IMG/VR virus record: IMGVR_UViG_3300029742_000228
Span: 1-10,144 of that record
Origin: a virus
Taxonomy: Duplodnaviria > Heunggongvirae > Uroviricota > Caudoviricetes
Direction: 5' to 3' (one strand)
DNA length: 10,144 bases
Part shown: positions 1 through 10,144 of the stretch, one piece after another
Numbering within the stretch: position 1 is the stretch's first letter
Layout: every line of letters starts with the position of its first letter
Made by a program: the position numbers and the translations under genes
Notes under the pieces: model-generated
Seen by the model: the letters and a program-made list of their open reading frames with translations, nothing else
What the model was told of the DNA's origin: nothing
Database searches by the model: none

Positions 1-584
1 ATCATCCACCCAACTTAACTGAAACCAGGATGAAGTATATGCATATAAAGTTCACTTTGCCAAACGTCAGTATAAAAAACCACATAAAAAATAGGGTGTG
101 ATAAAAAATACCGTAACAATAAAGCAAAGGATTATAAATTCCGTTACAGTTACAAATGATACTCAAGAAACAATTCCTTAGGAAAAACTTATTTACAGCC
201 AATAAGTAAGACACTTATATGATATCAAGTTTTCATAAAACATAACTAGGCTAAATAGCTGCGCCTAATACCGCTACACTTTTGCCAGCCCATGTTTGCC
301 TCCGGGTATTGACCCCTTCTCTACGCAACTTCAGTTCCCACCACCAACTTTGCGGCAGCTTTGTAGGATCAATGTCTAAAAGAATAATGGTGACCGATAA
401 GAAAACGACTGAATAACTGCAAATTTTCGCTCAAAACCTTCCTGTCAGATCCATAGCGAATCAAGTGCTGAATGTCACAGTATCAAACAGAAAACAGTGA
501 CGATCTAACCCTTCAAGAATATTCTACGATTGTTCTGTTTAGGAAAAGCAAGGCGGGAAGTCGGGAGATAAGTCATTGATAAAG

Positions 585-646
585 TGGCGGAGAGAGGGGG
601 ATTTGAACCCCCGGTAGAGTTGCCCCTACTCCGGTTTTCGAGACCG
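585..646 (-). tRNA. Partial tRNA-Ser (anticodon CGA, serU-like): 3' portion only, from anticodon loop through variable arm, T-arm and acceptor CCA; 5' half absent. Interpreted as the att core duplicate at the prophage end.
   Basis: Reverse complement of 585-646 reads CGGTCTCGAAAACCGGAGTAGGGGCAACTCTACCGGGGGTTCAAATCCCCCTCTCTCCGCCA: anticodon loop CUCGAAA, long variable arm typical of tRNA-Ser, T-arm GGGGGTTCAAATCCCCC, 3' CCA. It matches my recollection of E. coli serU. The match stops at 646/647, so the D-arm and 5' acceptor strand are missing. Confidence 0.75.
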
Positions 647-1075
647 ATGATACAGAGTCGAAAAATCAAAGAGTTAAAAATTTCTCTTGGAATAAATGTC
701 TTAAAATTGTACACGAAAAATCAATGAATTACATAACATTAAAGAAGAATATTCCAAGCCTTCTTGAGGCTACCACCTGTTTTCAGGTGTCATTCAGACG
801 TGATTTGCCCCAGATTGGGAAAGCACGCTTTTTTCTCAGCTATCGCCCTCTTATTTTGCCGTTACATTTCTTTTTGCACTCTAATGATTAATTTACAATA
901 ATAATATCGGTAATTATTGAGTAATAATAAATTGATTATTGCAAATGTAATTTAATTCCATCTTCGCGTTATATTCCAATCTTTAATCTCCGCATGGAAC
1001 AAGTTGCATGCGTGACTATATTAAGACAACTTATAACCACCAAAACATTTGCTTTGCAAGCAAAAACAGTGACCA

Positions 1076-1104
1076 TTGACTCTAAGAAAATTCCGATCTA
1101 TTGT
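1076..1104 (+). promoter_or_regulatory. Candidate sigma70-like promoter: -35 TTGACT (1076-1081), 17-bp spacer, -10 TATTGT (1099-1104)
   Basis: Hexamers read directly from the sequence, located about 35 nt upstream of the small ORF at 1139. AT-rich context makes chance matches common. Confidence 0.2.
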
Positions 1105-1138
1105 TAGGATCATCAAAGTTACTTAACAGTATTCCGAA

Positions 1139-1240
1139 ATGAAAATACAAAGCAAGCTAATTGTCTTATTAAACATTATCATTGCATTTATATTATTTGA
1201 GCTTTTAGCTCAAAAATTTGGTTTGAGTACATTATTTTAA
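1139..1240 (+). CDS. Hypothetical 33-aa hydrophobic peptide (MKIQSKLIVLLNIIIAFILFELLAQKFGLSTLF); possible small membrane protein or type I toxin-like moron, or a chance ORF in AT-rich DNA
   Basis: ATG at 1139, TAA at 1238-1240. Lys-containing N-terminus followed by a roughly 18-residue hydrophobic stretch. No strong Shine-Dalgarno. Candidate promoter upstream and a plus-strand terminator downstream. Confidence 0.2.
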   Translation: MKIQSKLIVLLNIIIAFILFELLAQKFGLSTLF

Positions 1241-1389
1241 AGCAAGATAAACAATATCGGGCACTCTAGTTTTTATAATTAACAATTAAACGTCCATAAA
1301 ATGTTATTTACTTTTCTTCGCTATTGTCATATCTTAATATAGTGGCTTACGCCACTCTACTTTCATCACATTTTGTACGTTTATGTACT

Positions 1390-1422
1390 CGCCATGAAGC
1401 TCTTTCATGGCGATTTTTTATT
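1390..1422 (+). terminator. Rho-independent terminator-like hairpin (stem CGCCATGAA / TTCATGGCG, loop GCTCT) followed by ATTTTTTATT
   Basis: Perfect 9-bp stem at 1390-1398 and 1404-1412 followed by a T-run on the plus strand. The minus-strand side lacks a U-run, so it appears to be plus-oriented. Confidence 0.5.
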
Positions 1423-1505
1423 CTTAATCCAAGAACATACTCCCTACCTATAGCAAAATCACTTTTTTAACAAAAGAATAACGTATTTAGGTAATCATTA
1501 CGAAT

Positions 1506-1640
1506 TTACCCTATAGGTGCTACTGGCCATTCAATATCCGGTGCAGTTGATGTATCAACACGGTTCAGCAACACCCGATACTTTTTCCAGGCTTCCAGCA
1601 ACGAGTTTTCTTCCTCCGTTGCGATCTCCAGCTCAACAAC
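1506..1640 (-). pseudogene. tfa: 3' remnant of a tail fibre assembly (Tfa) gene: last ~45 codons only, with no start and no N-terminal domain
   Basis: Minus-strand translation gives ...[42 protein letters not shown], stop at 1506-1508. This matches the conserved C-terminus of lambda-family Tfa proteins as I recall it. It lies in the same frame as, and immediately after, the TGA stop of the upstream fibre ORF. Confidence 0.6.
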
Positions 1641-1685
1641 AGTCTGAACGTACCAGGAACAGCCTCCTTCAGGGCTTGAAGGATA

Positions 1686-3863
1686 TCAATGTTCGCTTCC
1701 TGTTAACTGCCGGACAAGTGCAACCAGTTCGCTTACCTGATTTTCCAGAGTGCTGATCCGGGTGCCTGCTGTTGCCAGATTTTGACGTAGCGTTGTGTTT
1801 TCCTCTTCCAGCGCGGTAACGCGATCATCTGTTTCACGGGCGACCTGAACAAGTAAACCTGTCACGGCAGAGTAGTCAACATTAAGATAGCGCGTTTCTT
1901 CGCGTAGCTCGTTGCCGTCAACGGTCGGACCTTGCAACTCTTCACCGTAATGAGTAAACGATCCCACAGCTTCTGGTATCGCCTCCATTACTTCCTGTGC
2001 AATAACGCCAGCATAAGGCATCCCGTTGTCCTTGAACGTGTAGGTGTATCCGTTCATTTTACGGATTGCTTTCGTCGCGTCGCTGATAACGAGAATATCG
2101 TCTTTAAGGTCGCGGTCTGATGACTGATTCAGCGTTGTGCAATTAATAGCGCCATTTACATCAAACAACTGGCCTGCTGACGTTTTTTGCGCATAAAACA
2201 GATACGCAGCAGACGTTCCAACCTCAAAAACGTTTTGTCGATCACTTGATCCCCATACTTTTGCGGCAAATGATAGTTCTGTATTACCTAAGTTCTGTAA
2301 AACAAAACGATTGCCAGTCCCTGATTGCTTTGTAAGGGTTAAATCAACAGTTGAGTTAACCTCATCCTTGTTGATAGTGAGCGCCTGCGCTTTAGCCCCG
2401 TTAACAGCACCTGTTTTGAGTTGAACCGCGCCGTCATTACCATTTAGCAGTATCTCAGCTCCGCTAAAGAAATTTTTTAGCGACAGCATCTTACTTACGC
2501 CGACTGATGAACCCAACGCCCACGCGAGAGAATTACCGGTGCTATCAAACCCACGTACAAAGCAATCCATTTTGCTATAGTCTGACGTGCTTCCAAGGAC
2601 ATCAATTCGCCCTCCGCCAGATTTTACCGGGTTAGATGTGGTTAATGACCTGACAGCAAGATCGGTAGATGCATTGAGATCGTCTACTGTTAATAGTCGT
2701 TTCCATCCCTTATCAACCCCAGCCTCAAAGCTTCTTGCCCAAAATTTGGAGTTGCGACCGGCGAATTGTGTGACGTAATTACCGCTAAATTGAGCATGGA
2801 ATCCGCCAACAACCATTGTTCCGTCAGGACCGCCTGCGCTCCCTGCTATTGGCTTAAACTTATTTACATTCTCTGTATGTTGAGTGCTCCAGTTTTGCCC
2901 TGTGTGAACAACCAATCCCTGATAAGAACTGAAGGTACCATCAAGGTTAAAATTAAAGAACTTACTGTTCCCTGAATTATTTATGTCCCTGACAACAATT
3001 TCACCAGAAGCGTTAGCGGCCCTTAGTTCAGTTTGATCGACAACCGGACCTCCTTCGGATTGTAATCTTTGAGAAACAAATGTTCTGTTTGAAGCGTCCG
3101 TACCGTACGCGGTGAAAGATTGTGTTGCTTTAATCTGACCATTGTTTACAAATATAGGAATAGTGACGGTAAAATTTTTGTCAAAACTCAGGCCATTTGT
3201 TAATGCAATCCTTTCTGACACCCCTTGTCTGAACGGAAGGTTGCTGTAGAAGCCATGTTCACCGCCAGTGAAGTCAAGAACATTTTTAACAAAGTTCTTG
3301 TCGTTATCCTCCGTTGACGTTGATACACCAAACTTATATCTAACCCCGTTGTCACCAATTACGTAGTCTTCTGTTGGAACCTTAACTTTTGCCTTGTAGC
3401 CAGTTTGCACAACGACAGGAAAAGCGCTTTTATGGATGTAGAAAGCTACATGCTGCGCATAATCTCTTTGCGACGCTTTAATGCAAAGTATCCCGAGTTC
3501 ATTTTTTTCATAGCAAACAAATGACCCGTAAGCCACATCGCGAACGTCACTCCAGCCACCGCATCGAAAATATCCACTAAATGTATTGCTATTAAGCGGG
3601 TCTGATGATAAACGTCCTGCTGTTTTTATATCAATAGGACATGTCAGGTTGCCGTAACCTTCCATTGCGGATGTGTCTATTATGACAGGGTAGTATTTGC
3701 CATCCACTGCACCACCAGGTGCATTAATGGTCATCGCTTTTGTTAACCCACCCTCAGGGATTTGCAAATTAGTTTTGGCGTCATCAAGGCTATTTGCGCC
3801 AGTGCCACCATGAGAAACATCAAGTGGTATCCATTTTTTTGTGTGTCGCTGTAACACCCCCAT
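1686..3863 (-). CDS. Tail fibre / tailspike distal (receptor-binding) protein with a C-terminal intramolecular chaperone auto-processing domain (Peptidase S74 type), 725 aa
   Basis: Long minus-strand ORF. The C-terminal ~144 aa contain S-D-R-D-L-K (Ser-Lys dyad spacing), GYTYTFKDNG, GVIAQEVMEAIPEAV and a terminal coiled-coil-like segment, the hallmark of self-cleaving fibre chaperone domains. The N-terminus contains a GGTGA-type fibre motif. This stretch looks more AT-rich than the J region. Confidence 0.8.
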   Translation of the reverse strand: MGVLQRHTKKWIPLDVSHGGTGANSLDDAKTNLQIPEGGLTKAMTINAPGGAVDGKYYPVIIDTSAMEGYGNLTCPIDIKTAGRLSSDPLNSNTFSGYFRCGGWSDVRDVAYGSFVCYEKNELGILCIKASQRDYAQHVAFYIHKSAFPVVVQTGYKAKVKVPTEDYVIGDNGVRYKFGVSTSTEDNDKNFVKNVLDFTGGEHGFYSNLPFRQGVSERIALTNGLSFDKNFTVTIPIFVNNGQIKATQSFTAYGTDASNRTFVSQRLQSEGGPVVDQTELRAANASGEIVVRDINNSGNSKFFNFNLDGTFSSYQGLVVHTGQNWSTQHTENVNKFKPIAGSAGGPDGTMVVGGFHAQFSGNYVTQFAGRNSKFWARSFEAGVDKGWKRLLTVDDLNASTDLAVRSLTTSNPVKSGGGRIDVLGSTSDYSKMDCFVRGFDSTGNSLAWALGSSVGVSKMLSLKNFFSGAEILLNGNDGAVQLKTGAVNGAKAQALTINKDEVNSTVDLTLTKQSGTGNRFVLQNLGNTELSFAAKVWGSSDRQNVFEVGTSAAYLFYAQKTSAGQLFDVNGAINCTTLNQSSDRDLKDDILVISDATKAIRKMNGYTYTFKDNGMPYAGVIAQEVMEAIPEAVGSFTHYGEELQGPTVDGNELREETRYLNVDYSAVTGLLVQVARETDDRVTALEEENTTLRQNLATAGTRISTLENQVSELVALVRQLTGSEH
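1689..2120 (-). other. Peptidase S74 / intramolecular chaperone domain of the fibre protein; predicted autocleavage at the Ser encoded at 2118-2120
   Basis: The motif SSDRDLKDDI is encoded at about 2090-2125 on the minus strand (tca tca gac cgc gac ctt). Everything downstream to the stop would be the released chaperone. Confidence 0.7.
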
Positions 3864-5287
3864 GTTGATCCGGTTAAACCCAGGCGCATGGATTTATCAT
3901 GGTTATATAACCATGTTTCGCTATTCCATTGGTCAAGACGGTCCACTTCATTTTTGCGAGCGTGGCGTGTCCATTGCGGGCCTGTTGTCGGACTCCAGCG
4001 ATAGGTATAAAGCGAGCGAGTAGTCCATCCCTGAAATACACCTGTATACGCTGGAGTTCCATCTACCTGACTAATAAACCCCGTAAGACTGCTTTCACCG
4101 GATGCAATAGACGGGAAACCTGTTGCATCAGCCATGATGCGCATAAAGCCAATATAACCTGATGGATTTCCTGAGATGTCAGAGCAACCACGCGGTGATG
4201 ATCCCAAACCGATGTTAGTACCAACAATACCCTGGGCCTGGTTGCGATAATTAAGTGCGTCCGCCGCAGATTTCGCCGCGTTTGTTTCACTGGATTTAGC
4301 ATTAGTTTCGCTGGCTTTAGCGTTTGTTTCGCTGCTCTTTGCTGCTGCCTCGCTATTTTTCGCGTTGGTTTCTGATTTTTTGGCTGCTGTCGCGGAGTTT
4401 GCCGATGCAGTTTGTGAGTCTGCTGCCGCCTGTGCGCTGTTATCCGCATTCGTCTCAGACGTTTTTGCGGCCTTCGCGGAATTTCCTGCCGCCGTTGCCG
4501 AGGAAGCTGCACTACTGGCACTTGATGATGCGTTCGTTTCTGATGATTTCGCTACCTCTTTTGAGGCCGCCGCATCCCGGGCTGAGGTGGCAGCTTCTGA
4601 CGCTTTCGTGGTCGCGGTGGATGCAGAAGTAGCTGCAGATTTTTGTGACACTGCAGCATTCGTTTCTGACGTTTTCGCCGCACCGGCACTGGTGGCCGCC
4701 GCGCTTTTTGAGGACTCTGCAGCGGCAGCACTTTTTGATGCTTCAGTGGCCTTTGTTGATGCCGTTCCTGCGCTGGAAGACGCTGACTGAGCCGACGACG
4801 CGGCCTGTCCGGCTGACGTGCTGGCTGCGCGTGCTGAGCCTGCAGCATCAGTCGCATGGGTTGCCGCCTCACGGGCTGATGTGCCGGCATCGCTGGCTGA
4901 CTTCTTCGCGGCTGCCGTGTTCTGTGCCACTGCGGACGCGTTACGCGCCACCTCTTCCACCATCAGTTCAAAGCGGCGCAGTGCCTCCGGACGGGCATCA
5001 TCCTCCGTCATGGCACCGAGAAAATCATTCAGCGTACCCGGTTGTGAGTCTTCATACACGGTGATGGTCCCGGCATGCGATGGCGGGAAGCCTTCCACCA
5101 TCAGAATAACGCTGTACTGACCGTACTCAACGTCCATGCTGTAACGCCCGGCTTCATCCGGATTTTCTGAGGCCACCGTGTTCACCACCACCGTGGTGCT
5201 GTTACGTTTTGCTTTCAGCTGGATTGTGCAGTTCTGTACCGGTTTACCTGCACCGTCTTTCAGTACACCTGAAATCTTTACTGCCAT
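3743..5287 (-). CDS. stf: Side tail fibre protein, N-terminal/shaft part: lambda Stf-like N-terminus, then an Ala/Ser/Thr-rich heptad repeat region, then a non-lambda segment. Its last ~40 codons overlap the next ORF out of frame.
   Basis: Translation begins MAVKISGVLKDGAGKPVQNCTIQLKAKRNSTTVVVNTVASENPDEAGRYSMDVEYGQYSV..., near-identical to my recollection of the lambda Stf N-terminus. ATG at 5285-5287, preceded by GGGGTG. The ORF track's start at 5293 is an upstream GTG. Confidence 0.8.
   Translation of the reverse strand: MAVKISGVLKDGAGKPVQNCTIQLKAKRNSTTVVVNTVASENPDEAGRYSMDVEYGQYSVILMVEGFPPSHAGTITVYEDSQPGTLNDFLGAMTEDDARPEALRRFELMVEEVARNASAVAQNTAAAKKSASDAGTSAREAATHATDAAGSARAASTSAGQAASSAQSASSSAGTASTKATEASKSAAAAESSKSAAATSAGAAKTSETNAAVSQKSAATSASTATTKASEAATSARDAAASKEVAKSSETNASSSASSAASSATAAGNSAKAAKTSETNADNSAQAAADSQTASANSATAAKKSETNAKNSEAAAKSSETNAKASETNAKSSETNAAKSAADALNYRNQAQGIVGTNIGLGSSPRGCSDISGNPSGYIGFMRIMADATGFPSIASGESSLTGFISQVDGTPAYTGVFQGWTTRSLYTYRWSPTTGPQWTRHARKNEVDRLDQWNSETWLYNHDKSMRLGLTGSTWGCYSDTQKNGYHLMFLMVALAQIALMTPKLICKSLRVG
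3898..3915. repeat. Perfect 18-bp palindrome CATGGTTATATAACCATG
   Basis: Read directly from the sequence. It lies 35 nt upstream of the ATG of the distal fibre ORF, inside the 3' part of the stf ORF, and causes the mirrored HGYITM peptides in the spurious ORFs on both strands. Confidence 0.9.
4253..4936 (-). repeat. Low-complexity tandem repeat region inside stf encoding Ala/Ser/Thr-rich 7-residue units (e.g. KSSETNA, KASETNA, KNSEAAA); about 21-nt DNA periodicity
   Basis: Repeated GCGAAAC(T/A)AA(T/C)GC-type units are visible on the plus strand around 4262-4400. The protein shows heptad periodicity across roughly residues 118-345. Confidence 0.6.
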
Positions 5288-5297
5288 ATTCACCCCA

Positions 5298-5351: not shown

Positions 5352-5951
5352 TCAGAACTTATAACCGACACCCACGATGAAACCGTCAGTGCGCCAGTCG
5401 CCACTGCCGGAGCCTTCATAAGCAATATCAATGGCCACGGATTCGGTCGGGTTAAACTGCACGCCAGCCCCCCACGCCAGAGACGTGTTGCTGCGGCGAC
5501 CGTCATCACTTCCGGTCAGCACTTCGTGCGTTTTCCCCTTGTTGTCAGTTACGCGGAGATAATCCCCGGAGAAAGTCGAAATACGGCTGTAAGCCACACC
5601 CGCCATCGCATACGCGCTGAACCATTCATTCACGCGCACAGACGGCCCCGCCATCACGCTGAACCAGCGGTTACGCACGGAATCTTCATGCCAGCGGGTA
5701 TCGCTGTAATGAGTCAGCTGGCGATTCTTGTCTTCTGCATAGCTGAATGACGTCACCATCCCCAGCGTGTCCGTAAACTCATAACGGTATTTCACGTTAA
5801 TCCCGTTAAGATCATCACTGCCGGGAACGTTGGTCCGGGCATGAAGATACCCCGCGCTCAGCGTGGACTGATGTTCAGACGCCCATGCAGGCGCACAGGA
5901 TACGGCCAGACAAATGGCTGCGGACAAAATGGCGGCATAAAGTTTACGCAT
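5352..5951 (-). CDS. lom: Lom, Ail/Lom-family outer membrane beta-barrel protein (lysogenic-conversion moron), 199 aa with signal peptide
   Basis: Translation MRKLYAAILSAAICLAVSCAPAWASEHQSTLSAGYLHA...DGFIVGVGYKF matches lambda Lom as I recall it, including the C-terminal aromatic residue typical of OMPs. Shine-Dalgarno GAGAGG upstream of the ATG at 5949-5951. Confidence 0.9.
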   Translation of the reverse strand: MRKLYAAILSAAICLAVSCAPAWASEHQSTLSAGYLHARTNVPGSDDLNGINVKYRYEFTDTLGMVTSFSYAEDKNRQLTHYSDTRWHEDSVRNRWFSVMAGPSVRVNEWFSAYAMAGVAYSRISTFSGDYLRVTDNKGKTHEVLTGSDDGRRSNTSLAWGAGVQFNPTESVAIDIAYEGSGSGDWRTDGFIVGVGYKF

Positions 5952-6017: not shown

Positions 6018-9412
<3,395 letters not shown>

Positions 9413-9472: not shown

Positions 9473-10144
9473 TCAGCGACCAATCACCACAACCTGACCA
9501 CCATCCCCTTCGTCTGCCGTGCTGATCTCCTGAGAAACCACCCGCGACCCCACGCGCATTTCACCGTACAGAACAGGCAAAACATTGCCCTGGGCAACCA
9601 TGTTATCCAGTGAGGAGAAATAGGTGTTCTGCTTACCGTTATCCGTTGTCTGTGTACGGGGAGTTCTGGCTTTCGGTGCCAGCATCTGCGCCACACCACC
9701 GAGCACCATACTGGCACCGAGAGAAAACAGGATGCCGGTCATACCACCAGCCCCAATGGCTGCCCCCCATGCTGCAAGGGTGGCTCCGGCGGTAAAGAAT
9801 GATCCGGCAATGGCGGCAGCCCCCAGGACAATCTGGAATACGCCACCTGACTTGGCCCCGGCGACTCTGGGAACAATATGAATCACAGCGCCATCAGGCA
9901 GAGTCTCATGTAACTGCGCCGTTAACCCGGACGTGCTGACGTCCCGCCCGGCAATCCGTACCTGATACCAGCCGTCGCTCAGTTTCTGACGAAACGCCGG
10001 GAGCTGTGTGGCCAGTGCCCGGATGGCTTCAGCCCCCGTTTTCACACGAAGGTCGATGCGGCGACCAAATCGTTGTAAATCCCCGTAAAGGCAGATGCGC
10101 GCCATGCCCGGTGACGCCAGAGGGAGTGTGTGCGTCGCTGCCAT
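9473..10144 (-). CDS. I: Tail assembly protein I (lambda gpI-like), 223 aa, complete; start codon at the last bases of the window
   Basis: Translation MAATHTLPLASPGMARICLYGDLQRFGRRIDLRVKTGAEAIRALATQLPAF... matches lambda gpI as I recall it. Stop at 9473-9475, ATG at 10142-10144. Confidence 0.9.
   Translation of the reverse strand: MAATHTLPLASPGMARICLYGDLQRFGRRIDLRVKTGAEAIRALATQLPAFRQKLSDGWYQVRIAGRDVSTSGLTAQLHETLPDGAVIHIVPRVAGAKSGGVFQIVLGAAAIAGSFFTAGATLAAWGAAIGAGGMTGILFSLGASMVLGGVAQMLAPKARTPRTQTTDNGKQNTYFSSLDNMVAQGNVLPVLYGEMRVGSRVVSQEISTADEGDGGQVVVIGR

Follow-up and report, generated by a model that had tools for sequence, protein, structure and literature searches.

The window analysed here is a 10,144-nt stretch of caudoviricete DNA (IMG/VR record IMGVR_UViG_3300029742_000228), and the region considered, with J, lom and stf, closes the late operon of a lambda-like prophage at its 3′ end; all the features lie on the minus strand. 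From 5′ to 3′, stf is laid out as the Stf N-terminal domain, an Ala/Ser-rich shaft, a distal module and an S74 chaperone. The features are listed in window coordinates, with the evidence for their placement in brackets.

6018-7622, minus strand: C-terminus of J (gene order)
5352-5951, minus strand: lom (gene order)
3743-5293, minus strand: upstream stf ORF fragment, 516 aa from GTG, bearing the tail-attachment domain and ending in a short out-of-frame stretch (PF08400)
1686-5287, minus strand: stf, a pseudogene here, about 1200 aa once repaired (PGAP, intact relatives, repaired translation)
3834-3840, minus strand: A7 homopolymer, where a 1-nt deletion cuts stf into ORFs of 516 and 725 aa
1799-4180, minus strand: distal fibre module (nucleotide identity to lateral tail fibres of virulent siphoviruses)
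3000-3600, minus strand: hypervariable stretch, candidate specificity determinant (allele differences)
1689-2120, minus strand: Peptidase S74 domain and C-terminal helical tail (PF13884, alignment with 6f45)
1649-1685, minus strand: spacer of 37 nt between the fibre stop and the start of tfa homology (sequence reading)
1506-1648, minus strand: 3′ remnant of tfa, about 47 codons plus TAA (Caudo_TAP, identity to lambda and ev099)
1-1505, minus strand: lambdoid backbone downstream of tfa (98.4% identity to ev099 over 1648-1)

In relatives, the backbone at 1-1505 leads to an AraC-family gene, and in ev099 the sequence matching it stands after an intact tfa. The tRNA scan of the window and its Rfam scan at the gathering threshold were empty, and a search of the plasmid collection returned nothing relevant.

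A frameshifted side tail fibre gene

The upstream ORF matches phage_tail_N (PF08400, Pfam) with E=1.2e-72 over residues 3-136 and, like lambda stf, follows J and lom; PGAP starts the gene at the ATG at 5287 rather than at the GTG at 5293. The one continuous reading frame expected of a lambda Stf is found in relatives, whereas here it is interrupted by the frameshift in the A7 run. The 725-aa distal fibre ORF described in an earlier note on this DNA does exist (1686-3863, minus strand), but not as a gene standing alone. Read against its relatives, it is the 3′ 60% of an stf gene of about 1200 aa and no separate distal fibre gene, and because stf is frameshifted, the ATG at 3863 is an artefact. 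Once an A is inserted into the A7 run, a single ORF of 1200/1202 aa results with no further stop, and the 1200-aa length is that of the intact relatives. The sole gap in the alignment with W2-5 is the A-run at 3834-3840. Eight A residues are carried by W2-5, 2024CK, mEp460, FritzHoffmann and PhiR70_1, and intact full-length versions are known from W2-5 and mEp460. The shortening of an A8 run by one A would have inactivated stf in this window, and the product to be expected is a truncated N-terminal protein without a functional fibre. The locus of TUM1887, which is 99.95% identical to the window, is named by PGAP 'prophage tail fiber N-terminal domain and S74 family endopeptidase-containing protein, frameshifted', and the label 'frameshifted' is also attached to the copies in A35, A3024 and OkiPb01694. 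When sequence is read at the level of ORFs, the end of a frameshifted pseudogene can pass for a gene in its own right.

Consensus errors classically arise in homopolymer runs, and the A7 run might be an error of sequencing or assembly in a strain that truly carries A8 and encodes an intact 1200-aa self-chaperoning side tail fibre. Every phage copy has A8, and among the 120 complete E. coli genomes with this segment the exact A8 version occurs in 55, with identical flanks, and the exact A7 version in 4. However, besides the window, A7 is found in TUM1887 and in three more complete genomes from different countries, and those three hold a different prophage remnant. The A7 carriers also share one common haplotype of about 1.2 kb around the run (3600-4800), which is absent from the A8 alleles of W2-5 and mEp460 (about 60 nt different). 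A single A7 haplotype argues for an inherited mutation, and a loss of function fits the decayed state of both prophage contexts known from complete genomes; an error in the run is unlikely. Less probable still is a functional slippery site, in which side fibre production would be switched on and off by phase variation or transcriptional slippage at the A8/A7 run. The run lies directly upstream of a conserved WIPLDVSHGGTGA motif, A8 is kept even in the virulent phage FritzHoffmann, and both A7 and A8 occur naturally. Yet with the exact A7 segment in only 4 of 120 genomes and on a single haplotype there is no sign of repeated switching, the run lengths recorded are A7 and A8, and the conservation of A8 is explained well enough by the in-frame Lys-Lys that the run encodes. 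The inherited loss of one A is the reading adopted below.

The distal module and its receptor

The distal module shares 84.4% nucleotide identity over 4180-1799 with the lateral tail fibre of FritzHoffmann (Nonagvirus), and 75% over 3813-1806 with the fibre of the T5-like phage slur09, with a second segment at 82.4% over 4213-3941; it is also matched by positions 512-1210 of the PHROG 6578 profile. Homology to lambda and ev099 covers 5400-4446, in their stf genes, and then resumes at 1648, in tfa. By these alignments, the 5′ edge of the foreign module is upstream of the 725-aa ORF, between about 4446 and 4180. The module swap proposed earlier is thus upheld as a replacement of the 3′ part of stf and about 75% of tfa by a foreign module, whereas its 5′ edge has to be moved further upstream.

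Differences between alleles are concentrated within the module. Against the A35 allele, 118 of the 215 differences fall inside the 600-nt stretch 3000-3600 and the flanks are near-identical; invariant columns are sparse at ORF residues 60-316, and conservation is dense beyond residue 316. This pattern makes the stretch 3000-3600 a candidate for the specificity determinant. AlphaFold2 gave a mean pLDDT of 43.5 for the 725-aa ORF (alignment of 13 sequences) and of 42.7 for the variable residues 35-330 (24 sequences), both models being too poor for a fold search. Sequence and profile searches of the PDB gave no match for the receptor-binding part, the matches being confined to the chaperone domain (6f45, and 4uxe weakly), the Stf N-terminus (9e7m) and the Ala/Ser-rich shaft. 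NCBIfam gave no match for the 725-aa ORF or for the tfa remnant, and a far sub-threshold SMC match alone for the upstream ORF. The lateral tail fibres of virulent siphoviruses have been proposed to bind O-antigen as primary receptor, and by analogy with them the receptor of the stf module is possibly a polysaccharide. For the present prophage, the altered receptor specificity suggested in the earlier note is moot, because stf is broken here.

The S74 chaperone domain

In the S74 family, the C-terminal domain drives trimerisation of the fibre and then cuts itself off at a conserved Ser by means of a Ser-Lys dyad. Peptidase_S74 (PF13884, Pfam) matches ORF residues 582-633 with 50.1 bits (cutoff 22; E=3.4e-13), over positions 1-57 of the 58 in the profile. 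The motif S582-D-R-D-L-K587 aligns with SDRRIK of the solved chaperone domain of S16 gp37 (6f45). Ser582 (codon 2118-2120) and Lys587 (codon 2103-2105) are invariant across 13 homologues, as befits a catalytic dyad, and cleavage is predicted before Ser582, numbered Ser1057 in the 1200-aa protein, Lys587 being its partner. The domain makes up the last 144 residues, at the extreme C-terminus, and is followed through to a helical end, with weak coiled-coil Pfam matches at residues 675-723 and an AlphaFold2 helix at 664-721 with a pLDDT of only 56-74. The S74-type C-terminus with its SDRDLK dyad, read from the letters in the earlier note, is borne out by these results, and the coiled coil noted there has its counterpart in an end that is helical or resembles a coiled coil. 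Homology to PhiR70_1 restarts at 2129, just 5′ of the first codon of the S74 domain. Since the S74 family chaperones itself, a separate Tfa chaperone is unnecessary for its members, and from membership of the family we infer that this fibre would cut itself and be independent of Tfa.

The tfa remnant and the junction

Past the TGA at 1686-1688, the same frame continues for 180 nt (59 codons) without a stop. The Caudo_TAP model (PF02413) matches this segment with E=1e-19 and 71.4 bits, but of its 131 profile positions only 87-130 are covered; the segment is also matched by PHROG families for tail fibre assembly. Its last ~47 codons, the stub, correspond to residues ~147-194 of the 194 of lambda Tfa and possess neither a start codon nor the N-terminal fibre-binding domain, and the PGAP name for the stub is 'tail fiber assembly protein, incomplete, missing N-terminus'. 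In the alignments with lambda and ev099, homology to intact tfa begins exactly at 1648, within the breakpoint interval 1640-1690 that had been estimated beforehand, and the stub matches lambda tfa at 89.5% and ev099 tfa at 92.3% identity. The Caudo_TAP family assignment holds for the stub, whereas a complete ORF with start and N-terminal domain is lacking. Because tfa homology starts only at 1648 and has no start codon, the stub is a remnant and no member gene of the family. The earlier description of an in-frame Tfa C-terminus past the stop, with no start or N-terminal domain, was accurate.

The spacer at 1649-1685 has no similarity to lambda or ev099 tfa in the junction alignment. The proposed course is that entry of the module into the lambdoid backbone removed the 3′ part of stf and the first ~75% of tfa (~146 codons), with a non-homologous junction at 1648/1649, and that the last ~47 tfa codons would have stayed as a non-coding stub. 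Replacement in one step, or insertion followed by deletion, would fit the data equally. Neither the module donor nor the original junction event was found.

Two further readings of the stub were considered and rejected. A hidden small gene is discounted because the spacer, which contains AAGGAGG (1663-1669), offers no usable start codon after it. The in-frame position is not meaningful in itself, as it has a 1-in-3 chance of arising and descends from a single junction: the aligned carriers have no indels from the TGA to the stub, so the frame was inherited from one event. These same points bear on the broader idea that the stub is functional, either as RNA or as a mini-Tfa C-terminal domain made by read-through of the TGA or by internal initiation. 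In its favour, the stub keeps the reading frame of the fibre and is stop-free in the aligned carriers, PHROGs holds short families (78-130 positions) that end in the domain of the stub, and Rfam IS009 (RF02111) scores 93.1 bits over 1546-1746, which is below the gathering score of 117. However, a read-through product would stay joined to the chaperone domain that gets cleaved off, and 47 stop-free codons are uninformative at about 5% divergence and with gene conversion from intact tfa. The IS009 match is good only in the tfa-homologous half of the model, and as the other half aligns poorly, it is explained by tfa homology. Function of the stub is thus highly improbable, and a non-coding remnant is the reading retained.

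Distribution and exchange

Of 5426 complete E. coli genomes, 805 (15%) have the same junction, as do three phages, mEp460, Ayreon and PhiR70_1. The S74 chaperone allele is found in 803 complete E. coli genomes and is tightly linked to the junction; the 5′ end of the present module occurs in 120 genomes and the whole 4.1 kb in 85. Ayreon shares just the 3′ end from 2654 and PhiR70_1 from 2129. PGAP names vary among the allele-bearing proteins ('pyocin knob domain-containing S74 family peptidase' is one). Among the 803 genomes with the allele and the 805 with the junction, no relative was found in which this S74 allele is followed by an intact tfa.

The linkage suggests that the chaperone domain and the stub travelled as one unit, which would now stand behind several receptor-binding regions. 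The stub itself recombines, judging from its sites 1626 and 1539, where all four allele combinations are found among the window, W2-5, Ayreon and mEp460. Experimentally, a third of lambda x Rac recombinants crossed over within the tfa homology region (PMC3945230). Phage Tritos carries, behind a different S74 fibre, a tfa stub that is independent of this one and has its breakpoint elsewhere. From linkage and mosaicism, the stub and the 5′ region of stf probably form two homology arms for fibre exchange. Whether the stub is kept for that reason is a more tentative matter, and we hold with less than even confidence that it persists as the downstream homology arm of a portable chaperone-free cassette (S74 domain plus stub). 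If this is true, a lambdoid phage with an ordinary stf-tfa could gain a Tfa-free fibre by homologous recombination, and the presence of stub and chaperone allele together in about 15% of E. coli genomes would be explained.

Taken as a whole, the locus is very probably a mosaic stf with an S74 module that left a tfa stub and spread as a unit, the copy here being inactivated by the loss of an A. The arrangement is real and its outline was read correctly, yet it is ordinary and already known: RefSeq annotation has names for the gene family, for its self-chaperoning mechanism and for the truncated tfa. With its junction in 805 of 5426 genomes and three phages and annotated by PGAP, the scar is an old and common one that tells nothing particular to the present prophage, and the earlier reading has to be corrected on this point. 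Literature searches found no description of the S74-Stf/tfa-stub arrangement in lambdoid phages. The linkage of chaperone allele and stub across 800 genomes may serve as a marker for tracing the exchange of fibre cassettes.

Comparison with known systems

The closest counterpart is the side tail fibre of mEp460 (YP_007112094.1, NC_019716), which is the same gene at 96.2% nucleotide identity over 5400-1526, and with it in a sequenced phage the locus carries little weight as a discovery. Domain order, stop codon, 37-nt spacer and tfa stub are shared, and a tfa gene is likewise absent downstream. The mEp460 copy differs in having A8 and an intact 1202-aa ORF, and its backbone past the stub is different (DinI and integrase). 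Stf is dispensable for plaque formation by lambda, and for this reason the viability of mEp460 does not prove that the fibre assembles.

The lambda Stf-Tfa module (Ur-lambda, and intact in ev099 on the same backbone) has the same position after J and lom. Its Stf N-terminal domain and first ~850 nt are 88.6-94.7% identical to the window, and the tfa 3′ end and downstream flank are shared too, whereas the window has other sequence in place of the 3′ part of stf and the first ~146 codons of tfa. In lambda PaPa, one frameshift likewise divides stf into two annotated ORFs (orf-401/orf-314), but at another position and in another allele, and the full tfa is kept. The stf frameshift of laboratory lambda has been mentioned in the literature (PMC3945230).

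FritzHoffmann (Nonagvirus, Bas20) and slur09 (Tequintavirus) share the distal ~2.4 kb including the S74 domain, with homology that stops at 1799-1806, before the last ~37 codons, and the tfa stub is absent there. The endosialidase K1F/endoNF, the L-shaped tail fibre pb1 of T5 and gp37 of S16 likewise end in a C-terminal S74 domain with Ser-x4-Lys and then helices; compared with these fibres and spikes, the present protein has an N-terminus of the lambda Stf type and a receptor-binding part for which no similarity in sequence to solved structures was detected. A man-made relative is the lambda-K1F STF chimera, and the K1F fibre carries an S74 chaperone; the present arrangement differs in being natural and in having a tfa stub. 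Brodel et al. (2024; PMC11338833) combined the lambda Stf N-terminus with a K1-specific phage tail fibre, and delivery was successful. The locus described here is a natural example of a lambda Stf N-terminus carrying a module that is predicted to be Tfa-independent and is shared with virulent phages, and as such it is relevant to the engineering of host range.

Organization of the fibre region

All relevant features of the window are on the minus strand, in the order of the end of a lambda-type tail operon, and long ORFs are absent from the ~1.5 kb that follow the side tail fibre region.

Features of the tail operon end
9473-10144, minus strand: I-like ORF
6018-9412, minus strand: J, broken up by 32 N at 7641-7672
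5352-5951, minus strand: lom
1686-5293, minus strand: side tail fibre (stf) region
4446-4180: Ala/Ser/Thr-rich shaft with a short 21-nt repeat
between the fibre TGA and 1648, minus strand: 37-nt spacer without tfa similarity

The tail tip gene J is seen as two ORFs (6018-7622 and 7577-9412) because the masked bases interrupt it. A terminator-like hairpin with a T-run (1389-1413, plus strand) faces the end of the fibre operon. At 588-650 on the minus strand, CGGTCTCGAAAACCGG...GGGGGTTCAAATCCCCCTCTCTCCGCCA resembles a tRNA-Ser with anticodon CGA, as in serU, over its 3' ~60 nt from anticodon stem to acceptor end. ARAGORN found no full tRNA at 588-650 and the sole Rfam match was a T-arm-like tmRNA fragment; the piece probably goes back to an old duplication of the attachment site, carried along in the accessory part of the prophage, and phage ev099 has the same region with 98.4% identity.

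The 725-aa ORF is present at 1686-3863 and its C-terminus is of the S74 type, as the earlier note had proposed: Pfam Peptidase_S74 matches residues 582-633 with 50.1 bits (curated threshold 22 bits, E=3.4e-13). SDRDLK at the start of the domain pairs with SDRRIK of 6f45, the solved structure of the gp37 chaperone domain from Salmonella phage S16, both dyad residues are unchanged in 13 homologues, and the final ~60 residues are helical or coiled-coil-like, in agreement with the C-terminal coiled coil that had been read there. After the TGA stop (1686-1688) the frame remains open for 59 codons, and the Tfa-like tail noticed in it is indeed a 3' remnant of tfa, the tail fibre assembly (chaperone) gene. 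Caudo_TAP (PF02413, E=1e-19) matches it at profile positions 87-130/131 only, as do PHROG tail fibre assembly families, and when the C-terminal end of lambda Tfa is set beside the end of the segment, the stub (1506-1648) is the counterpart of lambda Tfa residues ~147-194. Both the S74 end and the Tfa-like segment are real and far beyond chance.

The spacer between fibre stop and stub contains a perfect Shine-Dalgarno-like AAGGAGG (1663-1669, minus strand), which the sequence follows with no start codon at usable distance; it may be the ribosome binding site of the gene that came after the fibre in the donor. Rfam IS009 (RF02111) matches 1546-1746 on the minus strand below threshold (93.1 bits, gathering score 117), with good alignment confined to the half of the model overlapping the tfa-homologous stub; the family, a candidate sRNA, seems to rest mainly on sequence from the 3' end of tfa.

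The side tail fibre gene is broken

The 725-aa ORF had been taken for a distal fibre gene of its own, a reading that does not hold. It is overlapped by an upstream ORF of 516 aa (3743-5293) bearing the Stf N-terminal domain (PF08400, E=1.2e-72), and over 4.1 kb the alignment with E. coli W2-5 contains one gap, in an A run of seven in the window (A7, 3834-3840) and eight in W2-5 (A8). With one A added the reading frame is continuous and codes for 1202 aa if counted from GTG, or 1200 aa if counted from the ATG at 5287; intact RefSeq WP_072660886.1 and dozens of homologues have this length. The match of the 725-aa ORF to PHROG 6578, a tail fibre profile of 1210 positions, is confined to positions 512-1210, and the PGAP annotation of the E. 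coli TUM1887 locus, 99.95-99.97% identical to the window, is a frameshifted gene. The single gap, the 1200-aa relatives and the PGAP label therefore identify the ORF as the 3'-terminal 60% of a disrupted stf; the ATG at 3863, before which the sequence has no Shine-Dalgarno-like motif, is incidental.

The similarity between TUM1887 and the window, otherwise 99.9%, ends at 9645. Beyond it (9646-10144) TUM1887 has partial tail genes whereas the window has a 223-aa ORF open to the edge, so the window comes from a related, less deleted prophage copy.

Could the short run be an assembly error? Among the 120 complete E. coli genomes holding the 76-nt segment around it, the exact A8 version is found in 55 and the exact A7 version in 4, and all phage copies have A8, including that of the virulent siphovirus FritzHoffmann. 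The three other A7 genomes (E. coli A35, A3024 and OkiPb01694) have the gene in another prophage with extensive deletions, its head decoration gene directly next to lom and an acyltransferase gene downstream. Between these three and the window, stf identity is 95.5% overall, with 1-2 differences over 3600-4800, the surroundings of the run, where A8 alleles differ from the window at ~60 nt. Since this haplotype is common to independent assemblies, the sequences argue for A7 as an inherited mutation in decaying prophages, and an assembly error is considered quite improbable. Such an inherited frameshift would here yield a shortened N-terminal product instead of a receptor-binding fibre.

Breakpoints of the foreign module

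Lambda and the lambdoid phage ev099, both with intact stf-tfa, match the window over 5400-4446 and then not again until 1648, from where the backbone common to ev099 and the window continues to position 1 with 98.4% identity; over 1648-1525 the identity to lambda tfa is 89.5%. In all intact tfa genes of E. coli genomes and phages the match begins no further upstream than 1648, and in most at 1648 itself (query position 153), which places the 3' breakpoint at 1648/1649, within the 1640-1690 range suggested earlier. On the 5' side, the 725-aa ORF begins only well inside the foreign part: the lateral tail fibre of the Nonagvirus FritzHoffmann is 84.4% identical over 4180-1799, and that of the T5-like virulent siphovirus slur09 matches in two segments, 3813-1806 at 75% and 4213-3941 at 82.4% identity. 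A 21-nt tandem repeat of 2.4 copies (4284-4334), coding SETNAK-type heptad repeats of the Ala/Ser-rich shaft, falls between the end of the lambda homology and the start of the FritzHoffmann homology.

Chaperone and receptor-binding regions

In S74 intramolecular chaperones, such as those of endosialidases, T5 pb1 and S16 gp37, folding of the trimer starts from the C-terminal domain, which is freed by self-cleavage. By analogy, the domain described here would nucleate the trimer and be released at Ser1057 (1200-aa numbering), and a domain that folds and releases itself would, from what is established for the family, make Tfa unnecessary. The propagated lambdoid phage mEp460 has an intact stf without tfa, but lambda forms plaques without Stf, and the viability of mEp460 is therefore no proof of fibre assembly. 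An engineered lambda-K1F STF chimera worked (PMC11338833), and both cases are consistent with Tfa independence, short of proof.

PDB sequence and profile searches gave no match for the receptor-binding part, and two AlphaFold2 runs gave models too poor for a fold search (mean pLDDT 43.5 and 42.7). Variation between alleles is concentrated in 3000-3600 and ORF residues ~60-316, likely a specificity region. Relative to the A35-type allele, ~20% divergence is confined to these 600 nt (3000-3600) and the rest of the gene is nearly identical, which suggests that a sub-module was exchanged inside the distal fibre. For lateral fibres, in small siphoviruses as in T5-like phages, O-antigen binding has been proposed as a putative function; by this analogy a polysaccharide receptor, as guessed earlier, seems reasonable.

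Spread and recombination

Among 5426 complete E. coli genomes, a 241-nt junction probe (1560-1800, coverage at least 80%) is covered in 805 and an S74 domain probe (1689-2120) in 803; the same stub thus accompanies this chaperone allele in essentially every case. No copy of the S74 allele with a full tfa turned up among those genomes, in accordance with the scar proposed earlier. The 5' end of this particular distal module is found in just 120 genomes and the whole 4.1 kb in 85. The junction is also present in phages mEp460, Ayreon and PhiR70_1, the homology of Ayreon being limited to 2654-1525 and that of PhiR70_1 resuming from 2129 downward, a short way before the S74 domain begins. Given this partial homology and the varied PGAP names of the host proteins (e.g. 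"pyocin knob domain-containing S74 family peptidase"), the chaperone-plus-stub unit stands behind several different receptor-binding regions. All four allele combinations at stub sites 1626 and 1539 occur among the window, W2-5, Ayreon and mEp460, which indicates crossovers or conversion within the stub; lambda x Rac recombinants cross over experimentally in the tfa homology region (PMC3945230).

Comparison with known systems

A second kind of arrangement is seen in phage Tritos (locus 2823-4335), where a lambda-type stf and a 93-aa ORF precede a separate 346-aa S74 fibre, followed by a 97-aa hydrophobic ORF, a tfa stub and a PinR recombinase; this could be a fibre cassette that is invertible or serves as an alternative. 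Its stub has a different breakpoint, equivalent to window position 1635, and such stubs therefore arose more than once. The feature is real and its earlier outline correct, yet it is ordinary, already annotated and, in the window copy, a pseudogene. The gene is the stf of mEp460 (96% nucleotide identity), its family has its own PGAP name, and the stub is already annotated by PGAP as an incomplete tail fibre assembly protein. A literature search found no paper describing the linkage of chaperone and stub, which is a small comparative-genomics point and not a new kind of system.
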